A DNA stretch of 57,933 bases from Candidatus Moraniibacteriota bacterium (GTDB lineage Bacteria > Patescibacteriota > Minisyncoccia > Moranbacterales > GWC2-37-73). The notes beneath the pieces were generated by a model. The model saw only the letters and a program-made list of their open reading frames with translations, ran no database searches and was not told the origin of the DNA. Where the stretch lies: the NCBI GenBank assembly GCA_035390125.1, contig DAOOTD010000001.1:182003-239935 (forward strand). Reading direction: 5' to 3'. The translations under genes were made by a program, and so were the position numbers. This document shows positions 9,232 to 49,059 of this stretch, piece after piece (position 1 is the first letter of the stretch; the number at the start of each line of letters is the position of its first letter).

Positions 9232-9270
9232 AAGAATCATTTTCGTAAAATTACAAGTGATTCTTTTTTA
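9232..9270 (+). terminator. Intrinsic terminator after the 77-aa gene
   Basis: Stem AAGAATCA / TGATTCTT followed by TTTTATTTT. Confidence 0.5.
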
Positions 9271-10386: not shown

Positions 10387-10392
10387 TGTTTT

Positions 10393-22068: not shown

Positions 22069-22950
22069 TTATTCAACTATTACTTTTACTGCCCTCAAAA
22101 CTTTCCCGTTTAATTTATATCCTTTAAATGTGATTTTTTTAATTATTCCCTTAATTTCTTCTTGTTTTCTCTCCCCTTTTTCCTGACTGCTGTCTTGTAT
22201 TGCTTCATGTATTGCTGGATCAAATTTATCTCCTTCTTTGGTCAGAATTTCTTCAACCCCGTTTTCTATCAGAACATTTTCCAGTTGTTTCTGAATATGC
22301 ATTATGCCAACTACCCAGGCGTTATCTTTCTGATCTTCCGGAATATGATCGGTAGACATATGAAAATTGTCCAATACTGGAATAATCTGCATAACAATAT
22401 TCTGTCCGACATATTTCATAAATTCTTTCTGCGATTCTGCCTGCATTTTCTTGTAATTCTCAAAATCTGCCTGACAACGCTTCCAGCCGTCTAAAAAACT
22501 TTTTTGTTCTTTATATTTTGAATATTTTTCAATTGCTTGCTCAGTTCCCACTGCTAAATTCATTTTTTTTGCTTCTTCAATGGTTAGCCATTTGTATCCA
22601 TCTTTTTTAAATTCTCCATTAACTTTAACCTTTTCATCTCCTTCATATCTACATACATAGTCAAGGAAAATAAAATGTTTTTCTTCATGAAAATCCTTAT
22701 CAAAAATACTTTCTGAAAAATCCAGCTGGGCTTCAACTTTTACATCCAACCCTGTTTCTTCTTTTATCTCCCTTGCTATTGCTTCTTCCGTTTTTTCTCC
22801 TAATTCCACATGTCCGCCAAAAACAGTCCATTTTCCTTTCCATTTCTTACTTTCTCCTAAAAGTATTTCTTCTTTACTGTTTATTATCAATGCGCCAACA
22901 ATAGCTTCGGGATATTTTTTTTCATTGCTTTTTTGTTTTTTATCTGTCAT
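22069..22950 (-). CDS. grpE: Nudix hydrolase domain fused to nucleotide exchange factor GrpE
   Basis: 293 aa. Residues ~1-145 carry a complete Nudix box, GHVELGEKTEEAIAREIKEETGL. Residues ~150-293 are GrpE-like (ADFENYKKM..., IIPVLDNF, FDPAIHEAI, GYKLNGKVLRAVKVIV). Sits between hrcA and dnaK. Confidence 0.9.
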   Translation of the reverse strand: MTDKKQKSNEKKYPEAIVGALIINSKEEILLGESKKWKGKWTVFGGHVELGEKTEEAIAREIKEETGLDVKVEAQLDFSESIFDKDFHEEKHFIFLDYVCRYEGDEKVKVNGEFKKDGYKWLTIEEAKKMNLAVGTEQAIEKYSKYKEQKSFLDGWKRCQADFENYKKMQAESQKEFMKYVGQNIVMQIIPVLDNFHMSTDHIPEDQKDNAWVVGIMHIQKQLENVLIENGVEEILTKEGDKFDPAIHEAIQDSSQEKGERKQEEIKGIIKKITFKGYKLNGKVLRAVKVIVE

Positions 22951-29840: not shown

Positions 29841-31637
29841 TTACTCAAGAATCGCTTTTATGCGCCTTACTCCAGCTGAAGACGATTCTTCTTTATTAAT
29901 CTTAAAATGGCCCAATTCTCCAGTATTTTTAACATGTGGACCGCCGCAGACTTCAATGCTGAAATCACCTATTTTATAAACTTTAACAATATCGCCATAT
30001 TTGGAAGCATCAAAGGATGTTTTAGCAATTTTCAAAGCTTCTTCTTTAGGCATTTCTGTCATTTCAACTGGAATATTTTCCTGTATTTTTTCATTTACCA
30101 AATCTTCAATTTTTTTTATTTGTTCCGGCGTAAGTTTTTGCGGATAATTAAAATCAAATCGCAAACGTTCCGCCGTAATATTGGCACCTTTTTGTATAAT
30201 ATCCTCGCCTAAAATTTTCCTAATCGCTGCCAGCATCAAATGAGCTGTGGTGTGATACCTTACAGTTTCTTCTGATGTGTCTGCCAATCCACCTTTGAAT
30301 ATTCCGGCAGAAGCAGTCTGGGAAAGTTTTTGATGTTTTTCGAATTCATCTTCGAACTCTTTCTTGTTGACTTCTACGCCCTTTTCTTTGGCTAATTCTT
30401 CTGTTATTTCCAAAGGAAATCCATAGGTCTGGTATAAATTAAATGCATCCGCTCCAGAAATAAAAGGTAATTTATTGAATTCTTTCAATCCTTGTTCTAA
30501 AGTTTTTCTGAATTTATTTTCTTCTTTTTCTAATTCTTCAAATATTTTTTCTTTATTGTTTTCTAATTCTTTGTAAAAATTTTTATACATTTCAATGACA
30601 ACTTCGGCAATTTCTTTTGTAAAATTATTTTCTCCACCTAATAATTTTCCATATCTTATCGCGCGACGGATAAGTCGGCGCAACACATATCCCCTGCCAA
30701 TATTTAAAGGTTCTACGCCTTCAGTAATGATGAAAGTTGCTGCTTTTATGTGGTCGGCAATAATCCTGAATTCTTTTTTATAATTTTCATATTTTTTTCC
30801 AGACAATTTTTCTATTTTTTCAAATATCAGCTGGAACAATTCTGTTTCAAAAACATTTTCTTTGCCATTCAGAACTGCTAGTGTTCTTTCGACTCCCATA
30901 CCAGTATCAACATTTTGCTGCTTCAGTTTTTCAAAAGTTCCATTTTCTTTTTTATTAAATTCCATAAAAACATTATTCCATATTTCAATCAACCGTCCTG
31001 AATCAACCAAATCAGAAAAATTTCCCTTTATTTTCCCTTCTTCTGGTCTCGTGTCATAAAATATTTCTGTGTCTGGACCACAAGGACCTGTTGAGCCAGC
31101 AATCCAAAAATTATCTTCCACTCCTAAGGGAATTATCCTTATGTCTTCTTCTATATTTTTGTTTTTTGCTATCTCCGCCTTTAAATTTGTTCTTTTAAAA
31201 ACATCCTGCCAAATAAAAATAGACCTTTCATCACGCGGAATATTACCGTCACCCTCGAAAACTGTGACATATAGCCTATTTTTATCTAATCCGAGCCATT
31301 TTTTGTCGGTTAAAAATTCAAAACTCCAAACAATCGCTTCTTTTTTAAAGTAGTCCCCAAAACTCCAATTCCCCATCATCTCAAAAAAAGTAAGGTGTCT
31401 ATTATCTCCAACTTCATTAATATCTCCCGTCCTGACGCATTTTTGGACGTTTACAACTCTTTTGCCTCCTGGATGATCATCTCCTAAAAGGTATGGGACT
31501 AAGGGATGCATTCCAGCTGTTGTAAAAAGCGTAGAAGTGTCGGTTTCGTGCGGAATCAAAGAAGCCGAAGGAATGATATTATGCCCTTTCGACTCAAAAA
31601 ATTTCAAATATTTTTCCCTTAATTCCTGCGTTGTCAT
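29841..31637 (-). CDS. alaS: Alanine--tRNA ligase, short form lacking the C-Ala domain
   Basis: 598 aa. N-terminal class II core (FFESKGH, FTTAGM, FFEMMGNWSFGDYFK) and editing-domain motifs HTTAHLM and CGGPHV. Ends right after the editing domain. Confidence 0.93.
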   Translation of the reverse strand: MTTQELREKYLKFFESKGHNIIPSASLIPHETDTSTLFTTAGMHPLVPYLLGDDHPGGKRVVNVQKCVRTGDINEVGDNRHLTFFEMMGNWSFGDYFKKEAIVWSFEFLTDKKWLGLDKNRLYVTVFEGDGNIPRDERSIFIWQDVFKRTNLKAEIAKNKNIEEDIRIIPLGVEDNFWIAGSTGPCGPDTEIFYDTRPEEGKIKGNFSDLVDSGRLIEIWNNVFMEFNKKENGTFEKLKQQNVDTGMGVERTLAVLNGKENVFETELFQLIFEKIEKLSGKKYENYKKEFRIIADHIKAATFIITEGVEPLNIGRGYVLRRLIRRAIRYGKLLGGENNFTKEIAEVVIEMYKNFYKELENNKEKIFEELEKEENKFRKTLEQGLKEFNKLPFISGADAFNLYQTYGFPLEITEELAKEKGVEVNKKEFEDEFEKHQKLSQTASAGIFKGGLADTSEETVRYHTTAHLMLAAIRKILGEDIIQKGANITAERLRFDFNYPQKLTPEQIKKIEDLVNEKIQENIPVEMTEMPKEEALKIAKTSFDASKYGDIVKVYKIGDFSIEVCGGPHVKNTGELGHFKINKEESSSAGVRRIKAILE

Positions 31638-33293: not shown

Positions 33294-35255
33294 TTATCTG
33301 CCTATTTCCCTTTTGTCTAAATCATAATCCTCATCATCCTGAGTTTGAGTAATCTTACTTTTATTTTGAGCATTTTTAATTATAAGATTTCTCACTTCAT
33401 TTAAATTAATATTTGGCTTATGGCGTTGTGGTTTGAATTTTTTTGGGGCTATATATTGCATCTGGGAAAGAGCCATTGGTTTCTCATTTGGAATATATGC
33501 TTTATGCTCAAATTTATTTTCTTTTGGGTTTTCTTTTTCTCTTTTTACTTCATCTTCAAGAGATATGCTTTTTTTAAAATATTGATTTTTGATTGTCTTG
33601 GTATGTTCATTATTATTAAAATATTTATTTTCTTGTATTTCTTCAGTTTCTCTTTGTTTTTTTCTTTCTTGGGCAATCTTCTCCTTAGCTGTCATACGCT
33701 GGTAATCTTTAAGACATTCTTTGCAGAAAGTAGGCCTTTTACCATCAGGCTGAAAAGGTACCTGGATTTCACTGGCACACATATCACATACAGCACCGAA
33801 CATGGGTCTTTTATTCTCTGTGTCTTTTTGTGAATCTTGCTTGTTCTTTAAAAAATCTGTTTCAGTTTTTTTTGTCTGATTTTCTTGAGCAGGGCGTGCT
33901 TCTTGAGACTGTAAAAAAGAAACATCTTGATGAACTTGTTCAGGAGCCTTATTGACTGTTTTAAAGCCATCAGTCGGCATTATACCAGCCCATTTGGCTA
34001 TTTTTTCCTCAACTTCAATTTTACTTGAGGCATAACGTTCACGCGAAACAGTTATTATTTTTTCTTCATTTTCCAGGGTATCTTTAATATAAATAGGAGG
34101 AAGAACTGTTGCTGAAAAAGCATCACCAGCGATTCCATCTATCATCAGTTTTAAATAAATCTGATATTTAGGAATATTCACAAGGTCATTCTGCATAAAA
34201 ACTGGAGAAAATTCTTTTTCTAGAAACTCAGCATCTGTTGCACCCACACGGAATGAAACGATAGTTCCGGTATTTCCAAAAATAGCATCACGAACTTTTT
34301 CGTCTATTTGGGCTATATATTGATTGGCTAAAATAAGATTTAATCGATATTTTCTGGCTTCAGAAAGAATATTAGCAAATGATTCAGTAGCAAAATTTTG
34401 GAATTCATCAACATATAGATAAAAATCCTTACGGGTTTCTTCAGGAATATCAACTCTTTCCATGGCGGCTAATTGTATCTTGGTAATCATCATAGCTCCA
34501 AGCAATGCACTATTGTCTTCACCTATGCGACCCTTAGAAAGATTTAATATTAAAATCTTCTGGGAATCCATAACTTCACGTATATTAAAAGAAGATTTTG
34601 TTTGTCCAACTATATTTCTAATAAGAGAGCTGGATAGAAATTGTCCGACTTTATTTTGAATAGGAGAAATAACTTCCTGTAAAACCCTTTCATTCCATTT
34701 GCTAAATTCTTCAATCCAAAATTGCTTAACTACTGGATCGGATACATTATCAACAACTTTTTCTCTATATCTTTTATCAACAAGTATTCTAGTAACGCCA
34801 AGAAGTGTGCTTCCTGGATATTCAAGAAGCGCTAATATTGCATTACGAAGAATATATTCAAGGCGTGGTCCCCATGAATCTGCCCATATTTTTTTGAATA
34901 CTCCAATTAAGCCTGATGCCACAAGATGTCTGTATTCTGGGTCAACAGCTTCCATAACGTTGAAAGCTAGTGGAAAATTCTGATCTGCCGGATTAAGATA
35001 TATAACATCATTAATTCTACTAGAAGGCATTGCTTTTATCAGTTTTTCTGCAGTATCCCCATGAGGATCAATGAAACATACGCCCTTGCCACTGCGTATG
35101 TCCTGAACAGCCATATTTTCCAGAAGATTGGTCTTGCCCATACCAGTCTTACCAATGACATACATATGGCGTCTTCTGTCGTCTGTTTTTATGCCAAAAG
35201 CCCGTTCCTGATTGCGAAAATTAGTTTTAGCAAAGAAGTTGATTTCATTATCCAT
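33294..35255 (-). CDS. Soluble VirD4/TraD-like (type IV coupling protein-like) P-loop ATPase with a C-terminal CxxC-x17-CxxC zinc ribbon
   Basis: 653 aa. Walker A VIGKTGMGKTN, FIDPHGD, Walker B FYLYVDEF and a TraG-D_C-like block ARKYRLNLILANQYIAQI...GTIVSFRVG. No TM helix. CDMC-x17-CKEC at nt 33714-33788. Confidence 0.8.
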   Translation of the reverse strand: MDNEINFFAKTNFRNQERAFGIKTDDRRRHMYVIGKTGMGKTNLLENMAVQDIRSGKGVCFIDPHGDTAEKLIKAMPSSRINDVIYLNPADQNFPLAFNVMEAVDPEYRHLVASGLIGVFKKIWADSWGPRLEYILRNAILALLEYPGSTLLGVTRILVDKRYREKVVDNVSDPVVKQFWIEEFSKWNERVLQEVISPIQNKVGQFLSSSLIRNIVGQTKSSFNIREVMDSQKILILNLSKGRIGEDNSALLGAMMITKIQLAAMERVDIPEETRKDFYLYVDEFQNFATESFANILSEARKYRLNLILANQYIAQIDEKVRDAIFGNTGTIVSFRVGATDAEFLEKEFSPVFMQNDLVNIPKYQIYLKLMIDGIAGDAFSATVLPPIYIKDTLENEEKIITVSRERYASSKIEVEEKIAKWAGIMPTDGFKTVNKAPEQVHQDVSFLQSQEARPAQENQTKKTETDFLKNKQDSQKDTENKRPMFGAVCDMCASEIQVPFQPDGKRPTFCKECLKDYQRMTAKEKIAQERKKQRETEEIQENKYFNNNEHTKTIKNQYFKKSISLEDEVKREKENPKENKFEHKAYIPNEKPMALSQMQYIAPKKFKPQRHKPNINLNEVRNLIIKNAQNKSKITQTQDDEDYDLDKREIGR

Positions 35256-35307
35256 AATAACTATCGTTGTAGTTAATTTTTTATATATGCTTCCTTAATT
35301 TATTCTT

Positions 35308-36591
35308 CTATTCTACAGGCAAATTAGAAGGTGCCCCGCCATGTTTTGATTCTACTCTTGCCAATGAAGGCGCTAGTACATTCATGTCTGGCAAATGAAA
35401 TACTGTCGCAAGTTCTTCAGTGCTCATAACAAGCTTGCCTCCTTCTCCATCCATGCTTCTACCTCTGTATCTGCGTAACAATTTGCGTTGTAAATAACGT
35501 AAACGAGTTTCTATAAAAATATGATACGCAGTGGTCTTTGTAGTATTAGGTTTAAGTGAATTCAGATTATCATCAGAAAATTGCCTTATGGCACCAAAAA
35601 AAGAATTAATTCCAACTGCTTTATCATAGTTTTCGCGACGACCTATGTAAAGATAACGAGGTCTTACATAAAACTGTGGTTTTCCAAGATTATCTTCTAC
35701 GGCTTTTAGGACATCTTTTTCAACTGGAGATAAGCGGAACTCCAATGGTTCCTTTTCTTCCTTTTTGGCACTTTCAGCAAATTCTACTGGATTACTAAAA
35801 GCTTTTGGAATACTGCTTAAAATTTCAAATATGTCCTTCCATATTTCTTCAAATATGCTTTTTCTTTCTGTTTCCCTGCCCTTTAACTTATCTAGCGTTG
35901 GCTTGCCCTCCTTTGAAGACCAGCTTGTATCTGTTGGCTGAATTATCCATTGCAACCATAATTTTTGATTTAGTCCGAGTTTGCCCATTGTTTCTATAAG
36001 ACCAGACAAGGGATCTATCATTTTACCGGTTATAGATTCTTCAAATTTTGGATAAGTTTTAATAGGGTAAGCATTATTTTTTGTAAATCCAAGATCTGAA
36101 CCCCATAAATCCCACTGACTGTTTGGAATAATTTTAGGAACATCGTTTACATAATCAGGAACTTCAATAATTTCTACATCAGGATATTGTGCGTAAAGAT
36201 GAGCTTCCACCAAATGGCGATACTTTTGCATGACCCTGATATAAAAATGCACACTGCCAGAATCACCTACTATTTCCAAACTCATGTAATCAGTAAAAGC
36301 GCCGTCTATATAAATTTCCACTGGGTTAAGTGATTTTTGCACCCCGCAAAAACCATTATATAAAGCTTCCATAGGCTTTGGGCTTTTTTCGATATTTTTT
36401 GGAGGAATAATCTCAAGAACAACCCAGTCCGGCATAGCTGCAAATTTATCCTGAATGTGCTTCATCCAGATTAATTTGAAAAGGAAATAAAAAAGGGGCG
36501 GCAAAACAATGAACCATACATAACTCATCGCCTCTGATGCCGTTTTCAAAGAATCCCCTAATTGTTGAAATGATTCAAGAAGAATATTCAT
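35308..36591 (-). CDS. Membrane-anchored protein of unknown function, partner of the ATPase
   Basis: 427 aa. One N-terminal TM helix (YVWFIVLPPLFYFLFKLIW), then a large soluble domain (LEIIPPKNIEKSPKPMEALY...STEELATVFHLP). No family recognised with confidence. Confidence 0.7.
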   Translation of the reverse strand: MNILLESFQQLGDSLKTASEAMSYVWFIVLPPLFYFLFKLIWMKHIQDKFAAMPDWVVLEIIPPKNIEKSPKPMEALYNGFCGVQKSLNPVEIYIDGAFTDYMSLEIVGDSGSVHFYIRVMQKYRHLVEAHLYAQYPDVEIIEVPDYVNDVPKIIPNSQWDLWGSDLGFTKNNAYPIKTYPKFEESITGKMIDPLSGLIETMGKLGLNQKLWLQWIIQPTDTSWSSKEGKPTLDKLKGRETERKSIFEEIWKDIFEILSSIPKAFSNPVEFAESAKKEEKEPLEFRLSPVEKDVLKAVEDNLGKPQFYVRPRYLYIGRRENYDKAVGINSFFGAIRQFSDDNLNSLKPNTTKTTAYHIFIETRLRYLQRKLLRRYRGRSMDGEGGKLVMSTEELATVFHLPDMNVLAPSLARVESKHGGAPSNLPVE

Positions 36592-36636
36592 GGTATTTTT
36601 TGTTTTTTATAGAAACTAAATGGCTTTTATGTGCCA

Positions 36637-37692
36637 TCATTTAATTGAGTAAGTACCCTCTTTTGATTTAGAGAAATAATTATTCAAATTAATAACTATA
36701 GTTGATTCTTTAACCTGCCTTACAGCAAGAACTTTTTCAATAATTTCTTCCTTTTTTAGCGGTTTTGCGCTATTTTTTATAATTTCTTCAATAACATCCT
36801 TGACTGTGCCTCTTTTGTACCCCCATTCAACTAATGCATAAATTCCTCTACCAACTAGAACAAAATTACTGTCTTTTATAAGTTCATTATGCACTGTCTG
36901 TGGATGGGTTTTTTTCTTGTTTAAACGATTTTGATCTATTTTCTTGGCAATTTCTCTAAAATGAAGCGGTTTTCCGAACTCTTTTATGACAAGATAAGCT
37001 TTTTCACGTGTTCCTTTCGGAGAAATTTCTTTCCAATCTACAATACCCCATTTATCAAAAGCATTTTTACTTAATTCACCAGAAACTTGCAAAAAATGCT
37101 TTAACGTTTCTTTTGGTATGTCTAAATTTTTAGTTTTATTTATATGTTCAAATAATATATCAAATGGCAAGGGCTTTTTATGATTCTTTAAGGTTTCTAT
37201 AGCTGCATTTTTTACATTTTTCCAGTGATCAAATTTAAAATCTTTAAGAGCATAAGAGAATTTAAGCTCATTTTTAACTTCATTACCTAAAACATCTTCT
37301 AAACATTCCAAGAAAAAACGTGCAGCAGCTTCTTCATTTGTGTTGCCTTTTCCTAAGACAGATATAATGTGACTTTCTTCCATTATACCACTATTTGATT
37401 GCAAAGCCAAGGTTATTTTTTCCTGAATTTGTATAAAAACAGGGTGTTCTTTCTTGTCTCTTATTTTTTTTAAAACTTCACGTATAATCTGACGTACACG
37501 TTCGCGGGTGATGCGGTGTTTCTTGCCAATTTCTTCAAGAGTCATTTTATTAGGTAAAAATACCCCATACCTATTCAAAATAATCTCTTGAGATCTTTCG
37601 GGAAGGTCAAAAATTAGCTCTCTTAAGGAATCAGAAAAAAACAGATTTTCGTCTGCTGTGTATTTTCCGGCTTGTTTAAGTGATTTTTCCAT
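36637..37692 (-). CDS. Sigma-70 region-4-like HTH plus HARE-HTH DNA-binding protein
   Basis: 351 aa. LPERSQEIILNRYG...TLEEIGKKHRITRERVRQI (region 4-like). The C-terminal KPLHFREIAKKI...FVLVGRGIYALVEW is HARE-HTH-like. Confidence 0.7.
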   Translation of the reverse strand: MEKSLKQAGKYTADENLFFSDSLRELIFDLPERSQEIILNRYGVFLPNKMTLEEIGKKHRITRERVRQIIREVLKKIRDKKEHPVFIQIQEKITLALQSNSGIMEESHIISVLGKGNTNEEAAARFFLECLEDVLGNEVKNELKFSYALKDFKFDHWKNVKNAAIETLKNHKKPLPFDILFEHINKTKNLDIPKETLKHFLQVSGELSKNAFDKWGIVDWKEISPKGTREKAYLVIKEFGKPLHFREIAKKIDQNRLNKKKTHPQTVHNELIKDSNFVLVGRGIYALVEWGYKRGTVKDVIEEIIKNSAKPLKKEEIIEKVLAVRQVKESTIVINLNNYFSKSKEGTYSIK

Positions 37693-38052: not shown

Positions 38053-39195
38053 TTATCGCAGTACGGCTTTGAGATCCTGTTCGGTTTTCTTGCGGATTTC
38101 TTCCTGAATTTTATTTATTTCTTCATTAGTGAGTGTTCTTTCCATGGAGCGATATGTGATGCGGAAAGTATAGCTCTTCTTGTCCTTGCCGAATTTTTCT
38201 TCATTTTCATATTCATCCAAAAGTTTTACTTCTTCAATCAAATCATCAGCAAAATCGCGGACAATTTCGTAATAATTATTAAGATTAATATTCTTGTCAA
38301 TGATGAAAGAAATATCTCTTACTGTTTCCGGAAACTTACTGACTTCTTTAAACTTGCTGTTTATATCCTTGAATTGACTAGTGATTCTGGGATCATCTGA
38401 CCACAACACTCTGATGTCCTGTATATTCATTTTTACCATTGCCCATCTATCTATTCCAAAACCAAACGCCCAACCGTTATAAATTTCCGGATCCAATCCG
38501 AAATTTTTCAAACATTCTTTGTGCACCAATCCAGAGCCGGACAATTCCATCCATTTATCGCCGAATTTAACTTCAATCTGAGTTGAAGGATCGGTAAAAG
38601 GAAAAGTATCATCTAAAAAACGGTATTCACAATCTTCGCCAAAGACCGCTTTGGCTGCATCAGCTTGAATATCCTCTAGCTCTTTACGGGTTATTTCATG
38701 GTCCGATTTTTTACAAATATAAAGACCATCTATCTGATTAAATGCTGGATAATGACTTCGGTCAATTTCATCTTTTCTGAAAACGATACCCGGTCCCATA
38801 ATTCCAATTTTTCCTTCTTTTTCTAAAATTTCAATAATTCTTTCGTCGCGTAAACAATAGGGCCACATGGTTGTAGTCTGAGTGCGAAGAATATTTTTTT
38901 TATCCAAATAATATGTATCCGATTCCCTTCTGGAAGGATGATCCTGGGGAGTGTTTAAAACATCGAAGTTTTCTTCAACTGTAACAATTTTCGGAAAATC
39001 AACCACATAAAAATCTTTAAATCTTGGTAATTCCAATATAGCATCAACTAAAATTTTAACTGGCGAGTTTTCTTTTTTGGTAAGATCCGGCAATGCTAAA
39101 AGTTTTTTTATGCGCTCTGCCTTTATATCGCTTCTTTTGTTTAGTTCCTCTATTAAAATTTTTTCTTCTTTGTTCTCAATGACAATTTTTTGCAT
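38053..39195 (-). CDS. pheS: Phenylalanine--tRNA ligase, mitochondrial-type architecture (PheS catalytic core plus C-terminal FDX-ACB domain)
   Basis: 380 aa. Class II motifs (HPSRRESDTYY, FRKDEIDRSHYPAFNQ, GWAFGFGIDRWAM), then ~98 extra residues SKFPETVRDISFII...YTFRITYRSMERTLTNEEINKIQ (FDX-ACB-like, nt 38053-38349). Lacks the long N-terminal coiled coil. Confidence 0.9.
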   Translation of the reverse strand: MQKIVIENKEEKILIEELNKRSDIKAERIKKLLALPDLTKKENSPVKILVDAILELPRFKDFYVVDFPKIVTVEENFDVLNTPQDHPSRRESDTYYLDKKNILRTQTTTMWPYCLRDERIIEILEKEGKIGIMGPGIVFRKDEIDRSHYPAFNQIDGLYICKKSDHEITRKELEDIQADAAKAVFGEDCEYRFLDDTFPFTDPSTQIEVKFGDKWMELSGSGLVHKECLKNFGLDPEIYNGWAFGFGIDRWAMVKMNIQDIRVLWSDDPRITSQFKDINSKFKEVSKFPETVRDISFIIDKNINLNNYYEIVRDFADDLIEEVKLLDEYENEEKFGKDKKSYTFRITYRSMERTLTNEEINKIQEEIRKKTEQDLKAVLR

Positions 39196-39215
39196 ATGCT
39201 TATTTTATTGTGAAT

Positions 39216-39644
39216 TTATTTATTCAAGTTAGGATATTTTGCAAATTCCATTCCAATTTCGGCATTTTCATCTAAAATCATAATTCCCGTATGATCATCG
39301 CCTAAACCCAGTTCGTCCTTGGCACAAAGCATTCCACAAGATTTTACACCACGGATTTCAGCTTCTTTTATTTCAATTCCATTTGGCAATTTTGCACCCA
39401 AAAGTGCAACTGGCACTTTTTGTCCTGTTTCAATATTTGGCGCCCCGCAGACAACCTCTAATTTCTTGCTGCCTATATCAACCCTCACCAATCTTAACCT
39501 GTCCGCGTTAGGATGCTTATTTATTTCCAAAATTTTCCCCACTACAATATTTTCGAAAGAGCGCGTTATATGACTTTTTAAAGCTTCTTCAGCTGATTTT
39601 CCTGTATTGAATAATTTTTTGAGCCAATTATATAAAAATTCCAT
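39216..39644 (-). CDS. PheT N-terminal fragment / stand-alone tRNA-binding OB-fold protein
   Basis: 142 aa. Begins like PheT (MEFLYNWLKKL...) and carries the tRNA-binding-domain blocks HPNADRLRLVRVDIG, VCGAPN, GMLCAKDELGL and DHTGIMIL. Nothing corresponding to the B3/B4 editing, B5 or B6-B8 domains. Confidence 0.8.
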   Translation of the reverse strand: MEFLYNWLKKLFNTGKSAEEALKSHITRSFENIVVGKILEINKHPNADRLRLVRVDIGSKKLEVVCGAPNIETGQKVPVALLGAKLPNGIEIKEAEIRGVKSCGMLCAKDELGLGDDHTGIMILDENAEIGMEFAKYPNLNK

Positions 39645-39669: not shown

Positions 39670-40866
39670 TTAGAATATTATTTTTATAAATCCCAATTTT
39701 CCTATTTTTAAAACTTTTTTATTTTCTTTTTGCGTAATTATAGTCTGAATGTCTGTTATTTTTTCATCATCAATAGAAACACCGCCTTGTTCAATTTTTC
39801 GGCGAGCATCGCTCAGACTTTTCGCATTGCCTGATTCAACCAAAATTTCTGCCAATTTTTTTGATTCTTCATTTATCTTAAATTCCGCAATATCACTTGG
39901 AATTTCCTTTTTTGAAAAAGTATTTATAAAATAATCCTGTGCTGCTTTGGCTTTTTTTTCACCATAATTAATTTTAGTTATTTCATAGGCTAATTTCAGC
40001 TTAGCATCGCGTGGATTTTTTTTCGTATCAATTTCTTTTAATTCTTCTGCTGGAATGTTTGTGCAAAGTTCAAACCCCGGAATTATAAGTCCATCTGACC
40101 AAGCCATTACTTGTCCGAACATATTTTCAGCAGTTTCGTCTAAATTTACTACATTGCCTTCGGTTTTACCCATCTTTTTACCTGTCTCATCAGCCAAAAG
40201 TTTCATTGTTAAAACGAATTTTTCCTTATTTTTCACGGCTTTCATTAAATCCCTGCCGCACATCATGTTAAACATTTGGTCATTACCGCCAATTTCTAGG
40301 TCTACATTCAACTCAATACTGTCGTAAGCTTGAGCCAATGGATACAAAAATTCATGTAGGTATATAGGCTTCTCGTTTTTTATCCTTTCCTGAAACATGT
40401 CTCTTTGAAACATTTGCTGAGCGGTAAAATTCGAAGATATTTCTATTAAGTCTTTAAATGTGAGTTTATCATTCCATTCACTATTATATAGAATTTTAAC
40501 TGGATTTTCTCCATCAAATTTTAAATATCCTGAAGCTTGTTTTTTGTAGTTTTCGCTATTTTTTAGTGCTTCTTCTCTGGTTAATTTTTTTCGCACTGCA
40601 CTTTTATCAGTTGGATCGCCTATCATTCCCGTAAAATCACCCACAAGAAAAATGACTTCGTGTCCCAATTTTTGAAATTGGCCAAGCTTGTTTATGGAAA
40701 TTGCATTTCCAATATGAAGAGATTTGGCTGTAGGATCATAACCGCAATAAAGTTTTATCTTTTTCCCAGACATCAAGACCTCTTTGAGTGCTTCTTTGCT
40801 GGGATAAATATTTTCAACTCCCCGCGTCAAAATCTCATCTATTTGTTTTTCAATATTTTTATCCAT
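39670..40866 (-). CDS. tyrS: Tyrosine--tRNA ligase
   Basis: 398 aa. LHIGN (HIGH), KMGKT (KMSKS) and a C-terminal S4 domain. Confidence 0.95.
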   Translation of the reverse strand: MDKNIEKQIDEILTRGVENIYPSKEALKEVLMSGKKIKLYCGYDPTAKSLHIGNAISINKLGQFQKLGHEVIFLVGDFTGMIGDPTDKSAVRKKLTREEALKNSENYKKQASGYLKFDGENPVKILYNSEWNDKLTFKDLIEISSNFTAQQMFQRDMFQERIKNEKPIYLHEFLYPLAQAYDSIELNVDLEIGGNDQMFNMMCGRDLMKAVKNKEKFVLTMKLLADETGKKMGKTEGNVVNLDETAENMFGQVMAWSDGLIIPGFELCTNIPAEELKEIDTKKNPRDAKLKLAYEITKINYGEKKAKAAQDYFINTFSKKEIPSDIAEFKINEESKKLAEILVESGNAKSLSDARRKIEQGGVSIDDEKITDIQTIITQKENKKVLKIGKLGFIKIIF

Positions 40867-43032: not shown

Positions 43033-43302
43033 TTACAATAAACCCATCCTCTTTTTAGCTTCAAAAACCTGATGTGAATTCATTTGCCCCGATTTTTCCA
43101 TCTGTTCAAGTGTTTTCAGAATATCCTTTTTATTCTTCTGTATATTCTCAGGAGTTACAACTTTCTTAATAAGTTTTTCCCTTTCTTCTGGACTCATTTT
43201 TTCCAGTTTTTTCATGGCCATGCGCTGCATGAAACCCATATTTTCAGGATCCATCGGATTGCTGGTTTTTTTCTTTTTTTTGAATACATCTAAGATTCCC
43301 AT
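43033..43302 (-). CDS. Small K/M-rich hypothetical protein downstream of secF
   Basis: 89 aa with no TM helix. Lies 4 nt after the secF stop. Confidence 0.5.
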   Translation of the reverse strand: MGILDVFKKKKKTSNPMDPENMGFMQRMAMKKLEKMSPEEREKLIKKVVTPENIQKNKKDILKTLEQMEKSGQMNSHQVFEAKKRMGLL

Positions 43303-43306
43303 AACT

Positions 43307-44206
43307 TTATTTATTTTTTAAGGTTAAATTGTAAAATGTTACCAAAAGTGAAGAAGCTATAAATATAGATGAATATGTTCCAAAAGTTATGCCAACTAGC
43401 AATGCGAGCGCGAAAAATTTTATAGATGCTCCACCAAAAATATAAATGGCTAACAGGGTAATTATAACTGTCAAAGAAGTATTGATTGAACGAACCAATG
43501 TTTCATTTAAGCTCTTATTAACTATATCTGGAAAAAGTTCTTTATTGGAGCTTTTTAAAAGATTTTCCCTGGTTCTATCATAAACCACAATTGTATCATG
43601 CACTGAAAAACCTAGAATCGTTAGCAAAGCTGCAATAAATGGTATTCCAACTTCAACGCCATAAAAATGTCCCAGCCCGGAAAATATTCCGGTTGTAATT
43701 ATAATATCATGAGCCAGAGCAATCACGGCCCCTAATCCGTATTTCCAGGATTCAACCGGGCGAGAAACCTTGCGGAATGCCCAGGCTATATAAGCCATAA
43801 TCATAACTATAGCAAATGCAATTGCCTGAAGAGATTTAGATTTTAATTCTTTAGAAACAGAAGAATTAGTAAAATCAACACTTACTTGTGTAGCTTCCGG
43901 GTATTTTTCTTTTATATTTTTCCAAACATTTTCATTTATTTGGTCATCTTCAACTGCATAACGGATAAACATGGTATTGTTTTCTGAGTTCTGCATAGTC
44001 AAGCTTCCCAAATTTAAATCCTTGAGTATATCTGCAATTTCATTTTTTTCCGGAATTTGATTGGTAAATTTTACGCCCATACGCGTACCCCCAGTGAAAT
44101 CTATATCATATTTAAGTCCCCACACAAATAAACTCACAACACTTAATATTGTAAGTATTATCGAGAATGCATAAGCATATTTCATTTTATCAATAATGTT
44201 ATACAT
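43307..44206 (-). CDS. secF: Protein translocase subunit SecF
   Basis: 299 aa. DIDFTGGT and 6 TM helices. Confidence 0.93.
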   Translation of the reverse strand: MYNIIDKMKYAYAFSIILTILSVVSLFVWGLKYDIDFTGGTRMGVKFTNQIPEKNEIADILKDLNLGSLTMQNSENNTMFIRYAVEDDQINENVWKNIKEKYPEATQVSVDFTNSSVSKELKSKSLQAIAFAIVMIMAYIAWAFRKVSRPVESWKYGLGAVIALAHDIIITTGIFSGLGHFYGVEVGIPFIAALLTILGFSVHDTIVVYDRTRENLLKSSNKELFPDIVNKSLNETLVRSINTSLTVIITLLAIYIFGGASIKFFALALLVGITFGTYSSIFIASSLLVTFYNLTLKNK

Positions 44207-44212
44207 AAACTT

Positions 44213-45889
44213 TTATTCTTTAATGCTTTTTTTATTTACTCCAACCATCCAGACTCTTTCATGTATCCATTCACCAATGATAAATTTCAGCATTGTCCGC
44301 GTAATTGTGATAGCTGTAAACATAGAAATTGCAACTCCTATAAATAATGAAGCGGCAAATCCCTTAACAAATCCTGTTCCCATAAAATAAAGTATGCCGG
44401 CAGTCAGGAGCGAAGAAATATTACCGTCACGAATTGATGTCCAAGCTCGTTTAAATCCCTCGTCCAGTGAATTAGGAATATTTCTGCCACTCCTTATTTC
44501 TTCTTTAGTGCGTTCAAAAATAAGAATATTAGCATCCACTGCCATACCAATAGAAAGTACAAAACCGGCAATTCCAGATAATGTTAATGTTATCCCTGTT
44601 AGTTTAAATATTGTTATCATTAAAACGGTATAAATAAGCAAAGACAATGAAGCTACAAATCCTAAAAATCTATAAAACACTAACATGAAAATAATTACTG
44701 CAGCCATTCCAATTGCACCGGCAATTAAAATACTTTTCAATGAATCTGCTCCGAGTGTTGCTTCCACGCTTTGCTGTCCAACTAATGTCAGCGGTACAGG
44801 AAGTGCTCCTTGGTTCAATCTATCGGCTATATCCTTAGCTTCTTTAAATGTATAATTTCCTGTAATTACAGCTTGCCCATTTGTAATTTCAGCCTGAACA
44901 GTTGGAGCTATTTGCAATTGCCCATCCAGGAAAATAGCTATTTTTTTGCCAAGATTTTTCTTTGTCAGTTCTGCAAATAATTTTGTCCCCTCATCATCAA
45001 ATTGTAAAGCTACTTCTGGTTCTCCCAAACCTTGGCCTTGTGAATATTGAGCTGTGGCATTTTTCAAGTTTTTCCCGGTAAGACCTGTGTCTTTATATTT
45101 GAATTCTTCATACTGCGCTGCATTCTGTTTGCCAAAAAGTATATGCTGGACATGAACTTCCTTTTCATCACCTTCGCCTCTGGATTCAATGAATTTTATG
45201 ATATGCCATCCAAACTGAGTTTCAACTAAACTTGAATATATTTCTCCGGGTTGCATATTGCCTTCAAAAATGACTTTGTCGAATTCTGGAACAAATGTGG
45301 ATTTTTTTACAAAACCTAAATCCCCTCCTTTTTCTTTTGATCCTGGATCCTGACTGTTATCCTTGGCTAATTGTTCGAAACTTATTTCTTTTTCCTTAGC
45401 CTGAGTAAGTATTTCCTCGGCTTTCTTTTTTGACTGTGCATTCATTTGCTCGAACATTTGTGTGATCTGAGAATCAGGTTCTCCTTCTTCCTTGAATTCA
45501 AGCAATGGTGCATCTTTTATTTTCTTTTTTGCTTCCTCAATATCAGTAACCCCAGGAAGCTCTATAATGACCCGATTATCATCCCCTTTTTTTGTAGTCT
45601 GGACTAAAGGTTCTCCGACGCCGAAAGCATTTACTCGACGCTCAATTACATCTTGTGCAGCCTGCATAGCATCAGAAATTTTGGAAGAATCTATTTTGGA
45701 AACATCGGCTTTATATTCCAGGTGAATTCCTCCCTGTAAATCAAGACCTAGCTTCATGTTTAATTTATTAATTTTATCATAAACAGACGGTATATTTTTT
45801 ACCGCCTGAGGATATGCCATAACTGCACAAACCACAAACAAAATCACGATTCCGGCAAATTTAAGTTGTAATTTCTGTTTTATATTCAT
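44213..45889 (-). CDS. secD: Protein translocase subunit SecD with an inserted parvulin-like PPIase domain
   Basis: 558 aa. LGLDLQGGIHL, a C-terminal 5-TM bundle and the LPVPL block. Residues ~136-262 (nt ~45104-45484) read KGGDLGFVKKSTFVPEFDKVIF...ETQFGWHIIKFIE...VHVQHILF. Confidence 0.93.
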   Translation of the reverse strand: MNIKQKLQLKFAGIVILFVVCAVMAYPQAVKNIPSVYDKINKLNMKLGLDLQGGIHLEYKADVSKIDSSKISDAMQAAQDVIERRVNAFGVGEPLVQTTKKGDDNRVIIELPGVTDIEEAKKKIKDAPLLEFKEEGEPDSQITQMFEQMNAQSKKKAEEILTQAKEKEISFEQLAKDNSQDPGSKEKGGDLGFVKKSTFVPEFDKVIFEGNMQPGEIYSSLVETQFGWHIIKFIESRGEGDEKEVHVQHILFGKQNAAQYEEFKYKDTGLTGKNLKNATAQYSQGQGLGEPEVALQFDDEGTKLFAELTKKNLGKKIAIFLDGQLQIAPTVQAEITNGQAVITGNYTFKEAKDIADRLNQGALPVPLTLVGQQSVEATLGADSLKSILIAGAIGMAAVIIFMLVFYRFLGFVASLSLLIYTVLMITIFKLTGITLTLSGIAGFVLSIGMAVDANILIFERTKEEIRSGRNIPNSLDEGFKRAWTSIRDGNISSLLTAGILYFMGTGFVKGFAASLFIGVAISMFTAITITRTMLKFIIGEWIHERVWMVGVNKKSIKE

Positions 45890-45947
45890 GTTTTATATTA
45901 TATTTCAGTAAAATAAAAACTGCAAGGTTAAACAATAAACTTAGTTT

Positions 45948-46409
45948 CTAAATATACTTTGATAAACTTTTTATAACATTACTAAACCCTGGTAATAACC
46001 TTAGTTTTTTTATATTTTTCATATAAATCCATTTGAAATTTTCTGCTTCCCAGTCAAGCTTTATTTCATTGGTTTTCACTTCAACTAAAACAGGGTGGAC
46101 TATCCAAGTTTTTTTATATTTTCTCTCTTCCTGATCGAAAATTTCTCCAATTTTTATGCTTTTTATTTTGTTTTTGGAAATTCCCAGCTCTTCCCCTATT
46201 TCATCGCAAACTTTTTCCTTTAGGCTTCTTTTATCATCTAAAAAACCTGAAATTCCATTCCAATAACCAGGATAAAAATTAAGATTTTTATTTCTTTGAA
46301 CTAATAAAATTCTATTGCCATATTTAAGCACACAATTTATCACTGGTGTCCATCTTGCATTAGTATAATCAATCTGCCCCTTTTTTGGTTTAAATTTTTT
46401 ATTTTTCAT
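45948..46409 (-). CDS. Nudix-family hydrolase (variant Nudix box)
   Basis: The track ORF starts at 46487, inside secA. An ATG at 46409 lies 1 nt after the secA stop (153 aa). Box GFLDDKRSLKEKVCDEIGEELGI. Confidence 0.75.
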   Translation of the reverse strand: MKNKKFKPKKGQIDYTNARWTPVINCVLKYGNRILLVQRNKNLNFYPGYWNGISGFLDDKRSLKEKVCDEIGEELGISKNKIKSIKIGEIFDQEERKYKKTWIVHPVLVEVKTNEIKLDWEAENFKWIYMKNIKKLRLLPGFSNVIKSLSKYI

Positions 46410-46410
46410 A

Positions 46411-49059
46411 TTATTTTCCGCAGCATTTTTTATACTTCTTACCTGATCCGCATGGACAAGGATCGTTTCGTCCAACTTTATTTTCATTTATGATTGGTTT
46501 TTGCTGAGCAGGAGCTTCGTTAGCGTCATTTTCTCTGGCTGCACCAAATTGTTCCTGGTTTTCTTCTGCTCCTTTATACTGTATATTTTTCGGTTGAGCT
46601 TGTGCTTGCATTTGATTTGGGACTAAAGAAATCCTGAAAATAGTCCTAACAGCCGTGGAACGCACATTTTCCATAAGATGAGAAAATAAATGGAAAGCCT
46701 CACGTTTATATTCAACCAATGGATCGCGCTGTCCGTATCCTCTAAGACCTATCCCCTGGCGTAAATAATCAATTTCATCCAGATGATTCATCCATAGAGT
46801 ATCGATTGTTTGCAGTATTATAGCCTTTTCAACTTGTTTAAAATTTTCTGCTCCTATTTCTTTTTCTTTCTGAATATAAGCTTCTTTAGCTTTGCCCATG
46901 ACATATTCAGTCATTAGTGAAATTTTTTCCGCTACATTTTTGGATTTATCATCGCGTATTTGTTCGATTTTCTTTTTATCTTGGTCTGAAAAAGGAAAGA
47001 TATTCTGGATTTCAGCTGAAATAATTTCTGTATTCCATTCATATTCTTCCCCCAAAGAGTGCATGGAAATATTTCTTTCGATTTCTTCGTTAATATAACT
47101 CATCATTTCATTTCTAACTTCTTCGGCTGCTAAAATTTCCTTGCGTTTTTTATAAACAACTTCTCTTTGTTTATTCATCACATCGTCATAATCCAAAACG
47201 TGTTTTCGAATATCAAAATTATAACCTTCAATTTTTGATTGTGCGCTCTCAATAGTCTTTGAAATAATTGAATTCTGAATCGGCTGATCTTCCGGAAGCC
47301 CAAGCGTATCCATCATATTTTTCAATTTATCGCCACCAAATCTGCGCATAAGCTCATCTTCAAGCGAAACATAGAATTGGCTGGTTCCAGGGTCACCTTG
47401 TCGTCCTGCGCGTCCCCGGAGCTGATTATCAATACGTCTGGCTTCATGACGTTCTGTACCGATTATACAAAGCCCGCCTACCTCCCTAACGCCTTCACCA
47501 AGTTTTATGTCAGTTCCTCGTCCTGCCATATTTGTGGCAATAGTTACAGCTCCCTTTTGTCCAGCATTTGCCACAATTAGAGCTTCTTTTTCATGATGCT
47601 TAGCATTTAAAACTTCATGTTTAATACCTTCTCGATCAAGGAGCGCGCTAAGATACTCAGATTTTTCAATGGCAATAGTACCAACCAAAATCGGTTGGCC
47701 TTTTTTATTAAGTTCTTTAATAAACTGAGTAATCGCATCGAATTTTCCTTTTTCAGTTTTATACACCACGTCCGGAAGATCCTGACGAATCATTTGCTTG
47801 TTGGTTGGAATCTCCAGTACATCTAACTTATATACTTTTGAAAATTCCTCCGCGCTGGTGGAAGCTGTTCCTGTCATGCCGGCTAATTTTTTATACATCC
47901 TAAAATAATTCTGAAATGTGATCGTTGCCAGCGTTCTTGATTCTTTTTGGACTTCCACTCTTTCTTTAGCTTCAATAGCTTGATGGAGACCATCGCTATA
48001 TCTCCTGCCCTCCATTAAGCGTCCGGTAAAATCATCAACAATTATTACTTGTCCTTCTTTTACAACGTAATCGCGATCGCGCTTAAAAATAACTTCAGCT
48101 TTAAGAGATTGCTCTAAATGATGGACATAATTTATTTTCCCCAGCTCATAAATATTTCCGACTCCTAGTTCTTTTTCCACCTTGGAAATGCCAGCTTCTG
48201 TCAGTGTAGCTGCTTTCATTTTTTCATCCACTTCATAATCCTCTCTTTCCTTGAGTCTTGGAACAATTTGGGCAAAACGCTGGTATAATTTTGTTGATTC
48301 ACTGTCGGGTGCAGAAATAATTAAAGGAGTTCTGGCTTCATCAATCAAAATTGAGTCAACTTCGTCAACAATGGCATAATTTAGTCCCCCATTTGAGTCC
48401 GGTCTTTGTGCCATTTGTTCAAAACTCTGCACCATATTGTCGCGCAGATAGTCAAATCCAAATTCATTGTTGGTTCCATAAGTTATATCAGCTGCATAAG
48501 CTTCACGCCGGGTAATTTCTTTGAGATTTTCCATTTCTACACTAACTTCCTCTTTATCAACAACTTTTGGTTCATATAAATAGGAGACATCATGCATTAT
48601 GCAAGCTGTTGAAAGTCCAAGAGCATAGTATACGCTACCCATCCAATTACAGTCGCGTTTCGCCAGATAATCATTAACTGTAACTACATGCACTCCTTTG
48701 CCTTCCAGCGCATTAAGGTATATTGCCAATGTTGAAGTTAAAGTTTTTCCTTCGCCAGTTTTCATTTCTGTTATTGTCCCTCTATGCAAAGCAATTCCGC
48801 CCATGAGTTGCACATCATAGTGGCGTTCACCGATAATTCTCTTTGCAACTTCCCGCACAACAGCAAAAGCTTCCGGAAGAATATCATCCAGAGTTTTACC
48901 TTTATCAAGCTTTTCTTTAAGTTCTTTTCTTTTATTTTTTAATTCTTCATCTGAAAGAGCGCTAATTGTTTTCTCAAGCGCGTTAATAGAATCTACAATG
49001 GGTTGCAGTTTTCTTATTTCCCTTTCATTTGATCCAAAGATTTTAGTTAAAAATTCCAT
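46411..49059 (-). CDS. secA: Preprotein translocase ATPase SecA
   Basis: 882 aa. MKTGEGKT, DEVDSILIDEARTPLIIS and a C-terminal zinc motif CPCGSGKKYKKCCG. Confidence 0.98.
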   Translation of the reverse strand: MEFLTKIFGSNEREIRKLQPIVDSINALEKTISALSDEELKNKRKELKEKLDKGKTLDDILPEAFAVVREVAKRIIGERHYDVQLMGGIALHRGTITEMKTGEGKTLTSTLAIYLNALEGKGVHVVTVNDYLAKRDCNWMGSVYYALGLSTACIMHDVSYLYEPKVVDKEEVSVEMENLKEITRREAYAADITYGTNNEFGFDYLRDNMVQSFEQMAQRPDSNGGLNYAIVDEVDSILIDEARTPLIISAPDSESTKLYQRFAQIVPRLKEREDYEVDEKMKAATLTEAGISKVEKELGVGNIYELGKINYVHHLEQSLKAEVIFKRDRDYVVKEGQVIIVDDFTGRLMEGRRYSDGLHQAIEAKERVEVQKESRTLATITFQNYFRMYKKLAGMTGTASTSAEEFSKVYKLDVLEIPTNKQMIRQDLPDVVYKTEKGKFDAITQFIKELNKKGQPILVGTIAIEKSEYLSALLDREGIKHEVLNAKHHEKEALIVANAGQKGAVTIATNMAGRGTDIKLGEGVREVGGLCIIGTERHEARRIDNQLRGRAGRQGDPGTSQFYVSLEDELMRRFGGDKLKNMMDTLGLPEDQPIQNSIISKTIESAQSKIEGYNFDIRKHVLDYDDVMNKQREVVYKKRKEILAAEEVRNEMMSYINEEIERNISMHSLGEEYEWNTEIISAEIQNIFPFSDQDKKKIEQIRDDKSKNVAEKISLMTEYVMGKAKEAYIQKEKEIGAENFKQVEKAIILQTIDTLWMNHLDEIDYLRQGIGLRGYGQRDPLVEYKREAFHLFSHLMENVRSTAVRTIFRISLVPNQMQAQAQPKNIQYKGAEENQEQFGAARENDANEAPAQQKPIINENKVGRNDPCPCGSGKKYKKCCGK

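Follow-up and report, generated by a model that had tools for sequence, protein, structure and literature searches.

Evidence that a single-chain, mitochondrial-type phenylalanyl-tRNA synthetase displaced the pheS-pheT operon in a lineage of Parcubacteria

We analyzed a 57,933-nucleotide stretch of DNA (the window) from a Candidatus Moraniibacteriota bacterium (GenBank assembly GCA_035390125.1, contig DAOOTD010000001.1, positions 182,003 to 239,935; GC content, 33%), whose gene content and database relatives are those of a CPR/Patescibacteria genome, focusing on two adjacent genes related to phenylalanyl-tRNA synthetase (PheRS). One, pheS-FDX, encodes a 380-residue protein in which a PheS catalytic core is joined to an FDX-ACB anticodon-binding domain. 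The other, the OB gene immediately upstream, encodes a 142-residue stub that begins like PheT and contains only its tRNA-binding OB fold. Taken together, the evidence makes it very likely that pheS-FDX encodes a working single-chain PheRS for tRNA-Phe(GAA), that this gene displaced the resident pheS-pheT pair, and that the stub is a remnant of pheT.

The replacement can be read from two close relatives, L144 and L047 (throughout, L numbers denote loci and P numbers denote representative-search hits of this analysis; taxon labels of relatives are database record titles and a rough guide only). The two loci share ten flanking proteins in unchanged order (74 to 94% identical), and their DNA is colinear, with 76 to 84% identity. 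In L144, the slot between a small open reading frame (ORF) and a class I aminoacyl-tRNA synthetase (aaRS) gene holds canonical pheS (347 residues), pheT (845 residues), and a 188-residue ORF; in L047, it holds an OB gene (137 residues) and pheS-FDX. The sole homologous DNA within the slot (L047 positions 9608 to 9951 and L144 positions 10136 to 10491; 79.8% identity) corresponds to the OB gene on one side and to pheT codons ∼51 to 170 on the other. Canonical pheS and the first ∼50 pheT codons are gone from L047, and everything past domain B2 of PheT has been replaced by pheS-FDX. Compared with the resident proteins of L144, PheS-FDX has only 30% identity in its core (to canonical PheS) and 29% in its FDX-ACB domain (to B8); because both identities are this low, pheS-FDX is foreign to the locus.

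Further relatives retain the canonical pair in matching surroundings. L140 has the order SecA-NUDIX-SecD-SecF-small ORF-pheS-pheT-aaRS, with anchors that are 66% (SecA), 58% (SecD), 71% (SecF), and 42% (small ORF) identical to those of the window. The pheT-aaRS-Bac_transf-GT4-Wzz arrangement of L156 matches the stretch downstream of pheS-FDX in L007 and L008, and the pheS-pheT-gyrB...NusG-L11 arrangement of L160 has its counterpart, pheS-FDX-gyrB...NusG-L11, in a clade without the OB gene. Because the two gene sets occupy the same slot in close relatives and the stub is a truncated resident pheT, the canonical genes were overwritten rather than supplemented. An earlier reading of the window, made from the sequence alone, had pointed out that the order of the two genes is the reverse of the usual pheS-pheT. 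The order is as described, but it did not come about by rearrangement of an operon: the stub is what remains of the 5′ part of a displaced pheT.

Two additional genes were observed at the canonical slot of L140, namely a PDDEXK_3 (PD-(D/E)XK nuclease) gene between pheS and pheT (positions 6158 to 6547) and a gene for a 23S-rRNA-intervening-sequence protein after pheT (positions 9176 to 9535). Such small, possibly selfish ORFs could have promoted recombination at the slot.

The architecture of the 380-residue protein was correctly anticipated by the sequence-only reading. Pfam analysis identified PF01409 (tRNA-synt_2d) at residues 39 to 275 (188 bits, E = 2.6e-55) and PF03147 (FDX-ACB) at residues 286 to 380 (91.9 bits, E = 3.6e-26), the latter covering the C-terminal extension that had been proposed to be an FDX-ACB domain; PF02912, the N-terminal coiled-coil domain, had no match in the protein. 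The motifs quoted in that reading (GWAFGFGIDRWAM, SKFPETVRDISFII, and YTFRITYRSMERTLTNEEINKIQ) are all present. In the profile comparison that it had suggested, TIGR00469 (pheS_mito) outscored TIGR00468 (pheS) (254.8 versus 179.5 bits), but both scores fell below their cutoffs, that of TIGR00468 being 237.45 bits. P0241, the closest outlier to the family, and phage proteins do pass the TIGR00469 cutoff. As the curated models do not claim the protein, its relatives are named "hypothetical protein" at NCBI; they are called "PheRS alpha chain" at IMG, where the stub is called "PheRS beta chain."

The proposed mitochondrial architecture is also apparent in both sequence and fold. The best match among solved structures is human mitochondrial PheRS (mtPheRS; 188 bits versus 140 bits for Escherichia coli PheS), with an alignment that extends past the hinge (WsdDpRitsQF versus WceDeRflkQF) into the FDX-ACB domain. 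An AlphaFold2 model of the protein (pLDDT, 91.2; pTM, 0.86) was aligned by Foldseek to 3CMQ over the full length (TM score, 0.76; root mean square deviation, 3.6 Å; 389 columns), whereas bacterial PheS chains matched the core only (TM score, ∼0.53). Residues 1 to 38 were predicted to form a short strand and two helices; many positions in this segment are invariant in relatives, namely R21, D23, K25, A26, R28, I29, K30, and L33 in A1 and D23, R28, K30, and L33 in the larger A3.

Residues expected of a PheRS are conserved throughout the family. In the catalytic core, motif 2 R140, motif 3 R250, the Phe pocket F198-P199-F200, and A243 (the equivalent of E. coli A294) are present in 119 to 120 of 120 relatives. 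The hinge motif D260-I-R-x-x-W265-S-x-D268-x-R270-x-x-x-Q274-F is invariant across proteins from the candidate phyla radiation (CPR), phage-type proteins, and other single-chain proteins. Human mtPheRS reads G34 of tRNA-Phe with Asp364, Phe366 (Tyr-beta-731 in Thermus thermophilus), Ser375, and Arg414 (PMC7540514). By alignment, these residues correspond to D327, Y329, S341, and R380, and the same 120 relatives show nearly complete conservation at these sites (D, 120/120; Y, 97, or F, 23; S, 120/120; R, 120/120). The gene evolves under strong constraint, with an omega (dN/dS) of 0.025 between L007 and L008, and is present in one copy per locus. Within the same genome pairs, PheS-FDX proteins are 69 to 74% identical, at the level of SecD and SecA, versus 42 to 52% for tyrosyl-tRNA synthetase (TyrRS).

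Some sequence variation within the family was also recorded. Motif 3 reads GWAFGFGERLAM in L007 (gene at positions 10482 to 11621) and L008 (10438 to 11577), one residue shorter than GWAFGFGIDRWAM, and GYAGTFG in L009 (10468 to 11607) as well as in 11 of 120 relatives; every variant retains the invariant Ala and Arg. The pheS-FDX gene of L050 (positions 5329 to 6475) is 95% identical to that of the window, the closest among the loci from GTDB, but spans 1147 nucleotides (nt). This length is not divisible by three, which suggests a frameshift or assembly error in that metagenome-assembled genome (MAG); the dN/dS values for the pheS-FDX gene of L050, extracted out of frame, were therefore discarded.

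The 142-residue protein likewise agrees with its earlier description as a PheT-like start followed by an OB fold alone. Its sole Pfam domain is PF01588 (tRNA_bind; residues 33 to 132, 79.8 bits, E = 1.7e-22), and TIGR00472 (pheT_bact) aligns over positions 38 to 157 of 798 only (163 bits; cutoff, 402.65), without the remainder of the B1-to-B8 series (B3/4, B5, and B6/7). Residues 1 to 154 of E. coli PheT align with the protein from the first codon at 41% identity, and L144 PheT aligns from residue 4 to 7; the PheT-like start M-x-F-x-x-N-W-L-K is thus genuine, and its form MKFL(Y/S)NW(L/F)K is moderately conserved in the OB family. The window stub keeps this PheT start without the B1 hairpin, and the OB gene of L047 has acquired a new start. 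The label "B1-like" given to the protein by the sequence-only reading needs correction, as the OB fold is domain B2 of PheT, preceded by the first strand and helix of B1. In a tree, the stand-alone OB proteins fall within the B2 domains belonging to a group of low-GC full-length PheTs. Omega for the OB gene was ∼0.07 to 0.19, including 0.17 against the intact sister pheT, with a value of 0.11 for a SecF control. The OB gene is kept under purifying selection and is not decaying, although the constraint on PheS-FDX is far stronger, and its product most likely still binds tRNA, by analogy with B2, Trbp111, and YtpR domains.

Full-length PheTs without B2 were noted separately. L134 (positions 2444 to 8624) has a compact thrS-infC-rpmI-rplT-pheS-pheT cluster with a 705-residue PheT lacking B2, whose relatives derive from Lentisphaerae, Omnitrophica, and Cloacimonadota. 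B2-less PheTs of 678 to 693 residues are common among its distant relatives labeled Omnitrophica and Cloacimonadota (P0485 and P0499 to P0549). The beta subunit of PheRS is often B2-less in CPR bacteria, in which B2-TyrRS fusions also occur (Mukai 2017); given the Omnitrophica- and Cloacimonadota-labeled examples, loss of B2 is not CPR specific.

We next consider whether canonical PheRS genes persist alongside pheS-FDX. The screens for PheT covered the window, 10 kb past one of its ends, and the 10-kb flanks of relatives. Within the window and the adjoining 10 kb, tblastn with four PheT and three PheS queries matched only the two genes of the locus: the OB gene (PheT residues 1 to 176), the FDX-ACB domain (PheT residues ∼693 to 845), and the PheS core of the 380-residue protein. 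Neither tblastn nor Pfam analysis of large ORFs detected B3/4, B5, or B6/7 in the window, as the sequence-only reading had stated for the editing, B5, and B6-to-B8 regions of PheT. The flanks of 89 pheS-FDX genes, 1.32 Mb in total, contained neither a PheT body nor a second PheS, and infC, rpmI, and rplT were present in none of these 89 loci. As a control, the same screen recovered full PheT in 76 of 80 loci. These loci came from a scan of metagenomes that used the OB protein as seed and in which the matches listed were all full-length PheTs; several of them share synteny with pheS-FDX loci. Conversely, pheS-FDX was not found in 0.9 Mb around 80 PheT genes. Since pheS-pheT was overwritten, a surviving second copy is unlikely.

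GTDB was scanned with two family signatures, using one genome per species. The pheS-FDX signatures were found in 168 species, and the best 80 loci belong mainly to Staskawicz-, Nealson-, Moran-, and Wildermuthbacteria and other Parcubacteria/Paceibacteria. Many CPR-like contigs in this set bear titles such as "uncultured Bdellovibrionales," "Candidatus Saccharibacteria," "Gammaproteobacteria," and "Nanoarchaeota" (L012, L028, L031, L050, L064, L072, L077, L080, and others). These titles, several of them marked "TPA_asm," are unreliable placeholders, given the gene content of the contigs and their near identity to Parcubacteria loci.

The phylogeny of the catalytic core addresses the origin of pheS-FDX. 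In a neighbor-joining tree (222 core columns, 200 bootstraps), all FDX-ACB-fused proteins separate from canonical PheS with 100% support. The CPR family forms a group (99%) that is joined by P0241, P0242 (from an Oligoflexia-labeled MAG), P0245, and P0249 (95%); SrmL proteins form another (100%), and sequences from huge phages, giant viruses, and eukaryotes form a third (96%). Support for joining the CPR family to the canonical PheS resident in its relatives was 0%. A local fusion of PheS to B8 was rejected on this basis and on the identities of 30% and 29% given above. Instead, pheS-FDX is a xenolog that stems from an old line of fused PheRSs. Recent capture from eukaryotes was also rejected, as the window protein lies not in the mitochondrial clade but on a separate bacterial branch outside the viral and eukaryotic one. 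The suggestion in the sequence-only reading that the locus bears on the origin of the mitochondrial form is thus upheld, the fused PheRSs being monophyletic and the window family lying on this bacterial branch.

Single-chain PheRSs were also observed outside cellular genomes. A one-gene PheRS of the fused type is present on 40 contigs of huge phages and giant viruses, which speaks for the autonomy of this architecture. Among long matches, OB or editing domains fused to a single-chain PheRS were looked for and not found; the long matches are multidomain models of eukaryotic style. Full-length enzymes are encoded by huge phages (contigs of 200 to 536 kb and one GenBank phage of 635 kb) and by giant-virus bins (GVMAG, one of 1.47 Mb), and several pass the pheS_mito cutoff. 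The sources are L091 (Logan SRR32456865_22369, 160 kb), L092 (ENA ERZ19027398 scaffold_19, 341 kb), L093 to L132 (IMG/VR), and GenBank LR745206.1 (positions 613857 to 614888). In the tree, these proteins group with eukaryotic mitochondrial sequences, with 35% bootstrap support for eukaryote monophyly.

Several points weigh against a working PheRS that displaced pheS-pheT. The pheS_mito score of the window protein is just under the cutoff (258.35) and is approximately equal to its score with NF051887, the SrmL model (261.9 bits; cutoff, 300). Residue 156 is Asp in the window protein and Glu in E. coli, T. thermophilus, and human PheRS, and residue 153 is Asn where most relatives have His. P0242, on the same branch, is from an Oligoflexia-labeled MAG, in which a canonical PheRS is expected, and SrmL is a precedent for a fused PheS-like protein alongside a normal PheRS. 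The tree is distance based and covers one domain. The screens reached no complete genome, and a second pheS-pheT pair could lie elsewhere. Finally, no OB gene was found within 10 kb in 63 of 79 informative pheS-FDX loci, an absence that counts against an obligatory helper.

These points bear on three rival explanations. If canonical pheS-pheT persisted elsewhere in the genome, the 380-residue protein would be an accessory second PheRS (drug or stress resistant, phage derived, or nontranslational). The coexistence seen for SrmL and expected for P0242, the presence of a (B2-less) PheRS-beta in many CPR bacteria (Mukai et al.), and the extent of the genome outside the screened sequence favor this scenario; however, the operon was overwritten in the same slot of close genomes, leaving a truncated resident pheT, and the two types of locus exclude each other's genes in the 1.32 and 0.9 Mb screened. 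Moreover, pheS-FDX is under very strong purifying selection and single copy in streamlined genomes. We therefore consider an accessory paralog improbable. A still less probable scenario is that the protein is a mystery ligase like SrmL, with a PheRS fold and another amino acid or RNA substrate. The nearly equal scores with NF051887 and pheS_mito, both under their cutoffs, are consistent with this idea, but true SrmL proteins score 359 to 442 bits on NF051887, form their own branch, and differ at the relevant sites (HPY for FPF, N/S at 86, P/I at 152, R at 265, T/I at 329, and N at 341). The window family has FPF, W265, Y/F329, and S341, canonical in 120 of 120 relatives. Because the pocket and G34-reading residues are conserved here and changed in SrmL, the window family is assigned to Phe and tRNA-Phe. 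As a side observation, SrmL proteins (P0354, P0386, P0359, and P0276) keep the class II catalytic arginines, and their sequences suggest that they use another amino acid and read the anticodon differently or not at all. A final scenario, with next to no probability, is that the stub is a frameshifted or misassembled piece of a full-length pheT, as its homology to the first ∼150 PheT residues and nothing further might imply. This origin, which the sequence-only reading had named as a condition that would undo its finding, was refuted: all of the 120 best database relatives are stand-alone proteins of 125 to 191 residues with PF01588 only, the gene recurs by itself in >120 independent protein clusters from many assemblies, only 20 nt separate its end from the next gene, which is intact and unrelated, no frame of the window shows homology to the PheT body, and omega is well below 1.

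The role of the OB protein is less clear-cut. The sequence-only reading had proposed a tRNA-binding helper supplied in trans, which does not hold as a general rule: of 79 informative GTDB loci, only 16 have the OB gene directly upstream of pheS-FDX. As most pheS-FDX loci lack it, the OB protein is not required. An alternative role, which we regard as a serious contender though with less than even chances, is that the protein serves TyrRS (as a TapR-like factor) or acts as a tRNA chaperone of the Trbp111/YtpR type, its adjacency to pheS-FDX being historical. In 14 of the 16 OB-bearing GTDB loci, and in the window, tyrS is directly upstream, and the tyrS-OB-pheS-FDX trio recurs in L007, L008, and L009. 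B2-TyrRS fusions and a curated TyrS-associated PheT N-terminal domain-related family (TapR, NF045867) exist, the protein passes the YtpR cutoff (NF045760, 134.8 versus 100 bits), and ∼80% of pheS-FDX loci lack it. On the other hand, where present, the OB gene is always 4 to 71 nt upstream of pheS-FDX but 9 to 537 nt from tyrS. L047 and L013 have OB and pheS-FDX without tyrS, and L011 and L012 have tyrS and pheS-FDX without OB, even though their PheS-FDX proteins are 85 to 88% identical to that of the window. The TapR score (71.4 bits) is below the cutoff of 120, and the YtpR match is confined to the C-terminal 118 of 185 positions (68 to 185), without the YtpR N-terminal domain. The OB protein may assist PheS-FDX, TyrRS, or tRNAs in general.

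The TyrRS proteins of these loci are far more divergent than their neighbors. Between L007 (tyrS at positions 8279 to 9463) and L008 (8521 to 9726), TyrRS is 51% identical and PheS-FDX 94%, which fits the TyrRS replacements described for CPR bacteria by Mukai et al.

Returning to the single-chain PheRS, we envisage the following. The 380-residue protein would be a working enzyme in which the catalytic core is connected by the hinge to a G34-reading FDX-ACB domain. Its gene would have been acquired horizontally in the Parcubacteria lineage, replacing the resident operon; because of this replacement, it is most likely the only PheRS of the cell. Judging from its mitochondrial homolog, the enzyme presumably works as a monomer without a beta subunit, and the closed enzyme would open to tRNA-Phe by a swing of the FDX-ACB domain (PMC3275996 and PMC7540514). 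Post-transfer editing is presumably lacking, given the absence of B3/B4. The 142-residue gene represents the first strand and helix and the B2 OB fold of the resident pheT, and its product is not an obligatory partner of the PheRS.

According to the standard view, PheRS is an (alpha-beta)2 heterotetramer in all prokaryotes, and mtPheRS is the only monomeric enzyme of its class (PMC3275996). The locus contradicts this textbook picture, in that the genes for the heterotetramer were overwritten by one for a single-chain enzyme, with sister genomes keeping the "before" state. In open-licensed papers and bioRxiv, a single-chain PheRS was described neither for CPR or other bacteria nor for phages, and nothing was found on SrmL or TapR, the statements of Mukai 2017 given above being the one relevant remark; the curated models TIGR00469 and NF051887 show that database curators had already met related proteins. 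The new elements are the documented in situ displacement of pheS-pheT and the salvaged B2 gene. For genome annotation, marker sets that include TIGR00468 and TIGR00472 will score such genomes as incomplete, and the IMG label of the stub as a beta chain means that KEGG-style reconstructions hide the replacement.

The locus raises the questions of whether a bacterial cytoplasm can run on a one-chain PheRS without editing and how Tyr and m-Tyr are then discriminated, of where the mitochondrial form came from, given monophyletic fused proteins with three branches, and of what use an isolated B2 domain is after the rest of PheT was lost. One speculative and rather unlikely answer combines several elements. 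The PheS-B8 fusion would not be of eukaryotic origin but an older bacterial or viral invention, reused by huge phages, giant viruses, mitochondria, and bacteria. In the sub-clade of the window, a catalytic and anticodon-binding chain plus a trans-acting tRNA-binding subunit, the B2 protein, might constitute a new two-component PheRS. As there is no editing site, cells might tolerate mischarging with Tyr or m-Tyr or control it by other means.

The features of the locus are listed in Table 1. The sequence-only reading did not mention tyrS, the gene directly upstream of the stub. The intergenic gaps are 25 nt (tyrS to OB) and 20 nt (OB to pheS-FDX), and the coding strand has no terminator-like site; in a promoter scan of the locus, promoter-like sites were no more common than in shuffled sequence. 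From this arrangement, the OB gene is probably cotranscribed with pheS-FDX.

Table 1. Features of the pheS-FDX locus and its surroundings, in window coordinates
Feature	Coordinates	Strand	Basis
pheS-FDX, single-chain (mitochondrial-type) PheRS, 380 aa plus stop	38053..39195	-	ORF, PF01409 + PF03147
Family-specific N-terminal segment, aa 1-38, in place of the canonical PheS coiled coil	39082..39195	-	
Class II PheS catalytic core, aa 39-275	38371..39081	-	Pfam PF01409
FDX-ACB anticodon-binding domain, aa 286-380	38056..38340	-	PF03147
Stand-alone OB-fold tRNA-binding protein, 142 aa	39216..39644	-	PF01588
PheT-like N terminus of OB protein, aa 1-32 (MEFLYNWLKK...), without B1 hairpin	39549..39644	-	
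tyrS, 398 aa, first gene of apparent tyrS-OB-pheS-FDX operon	39670..40866	-	TIGR00234, 362 bits
Synteny anchors SecA - NUDIX-like - SecD - SecF - small ORF	43033..49059	-	Pfam

Other genes of the window were noted in passing. Directly downstream of pheS-FDX (33294 to 37692, minus strand) lie genes for a sigma70_r4/HARE-HTH protein, a DUF8128 protein, and a TrwB/TraG-like coupling ATPase that has a zinc finger at its C terminus; this conserved trio, which also occurs in L009, is possibly part of a type IV secretion or conjugation-like machinery of Patescibacteria. Alanyl-tRNA synthetase (29841 to 31637, minus strand) has only 598 residues, comprising the catalytic domain and tRNA_SAD; it ends just past the editing-domain signature and lacks the C-Ala domain, making it a second trimmed synthetase of this genome. 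In the hrcA-grpE-dnaK-dnaJ cluster, GrpE (22069 to 22950, minus strand; a 293-residue ORF) has an N-terminal NUDIX hydrolase domain at residues 17 to 136.

Among known systems, mtPheRS (human FARS2 and yeast MSF1; TIGR00469; 3CMQ and 3TUP) resembles the window protein in being one chain built of a PheS module, a hinge, and an FDX-ACB domain, with neither coiled coil nor B3/4 editing domain, and the two share the hinge motif and the four G34-reading positions. In contrast to mtPheRS, the window protein is bacterial and presumably cytoplasmic, is 35 to 70 residues shorter, has no presequence, and lacks an insertion of ∼30 residues between its residues 166 and 183. It also lies outside the phage, giant-virus, and eukaryote clade (95 to 96% support), and part of its own clade has a stand-alone PheT-B2 gene alongside. 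The single-chain PheRSs of huge phages and giant viruses share the fused architecture, the Phe pocket, and the G34-reading residues and pass or come near the pheS_mito cutoff. They are only 32 to 41% identical to the window protein, belong to the other main branch with the eukaryotic sequences, and are viral auxiliary genes rather than a host housekeeping enzyme. The fused form is a one-gene solution for a replicon unable to afford a heterodimer of 1100 residues. SrmL (NF051887) is of the same length class and has the same layout of core plus FDX-ACB; it is sister to the branch containing the window family (A+SrmL, 81% bootstrap) but has an altered Phe pocket and altered anticodon residues and presumably acts on another substrate.

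Canonical (alpha-beta)2 PheRS (TIGR00468 and TIGR00472) is homologous to the window proteins in its parts: the core (35% identity to E. coli PheS), B8 with respect to FDX-ACB, and the N-terminal part of B1 plus B2 with respect to the OB protein; in relatives, it occupies the same genomic slot. Unlike it, the window enzyme has no N-terminal coiled coil, B3/4, B5, or B6/7, and its core is separated in the tree with 100% bootstrap support. The OB protein shares the PF01588 fold and the HPNAD, CGAPN, and GMLC..ELG signatures with Trbp111/CsaA/YgjH, YtpR, TapR, and PheT B2, and among solved structures it is most similar to E. coli PheT B2 (105 bits), followed by 3BU2, a YtpR-type protein (103 bits). 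In contrast to the stand-alone families, it has a PheT-specific N terminus and derives from a truncated resident pheT.

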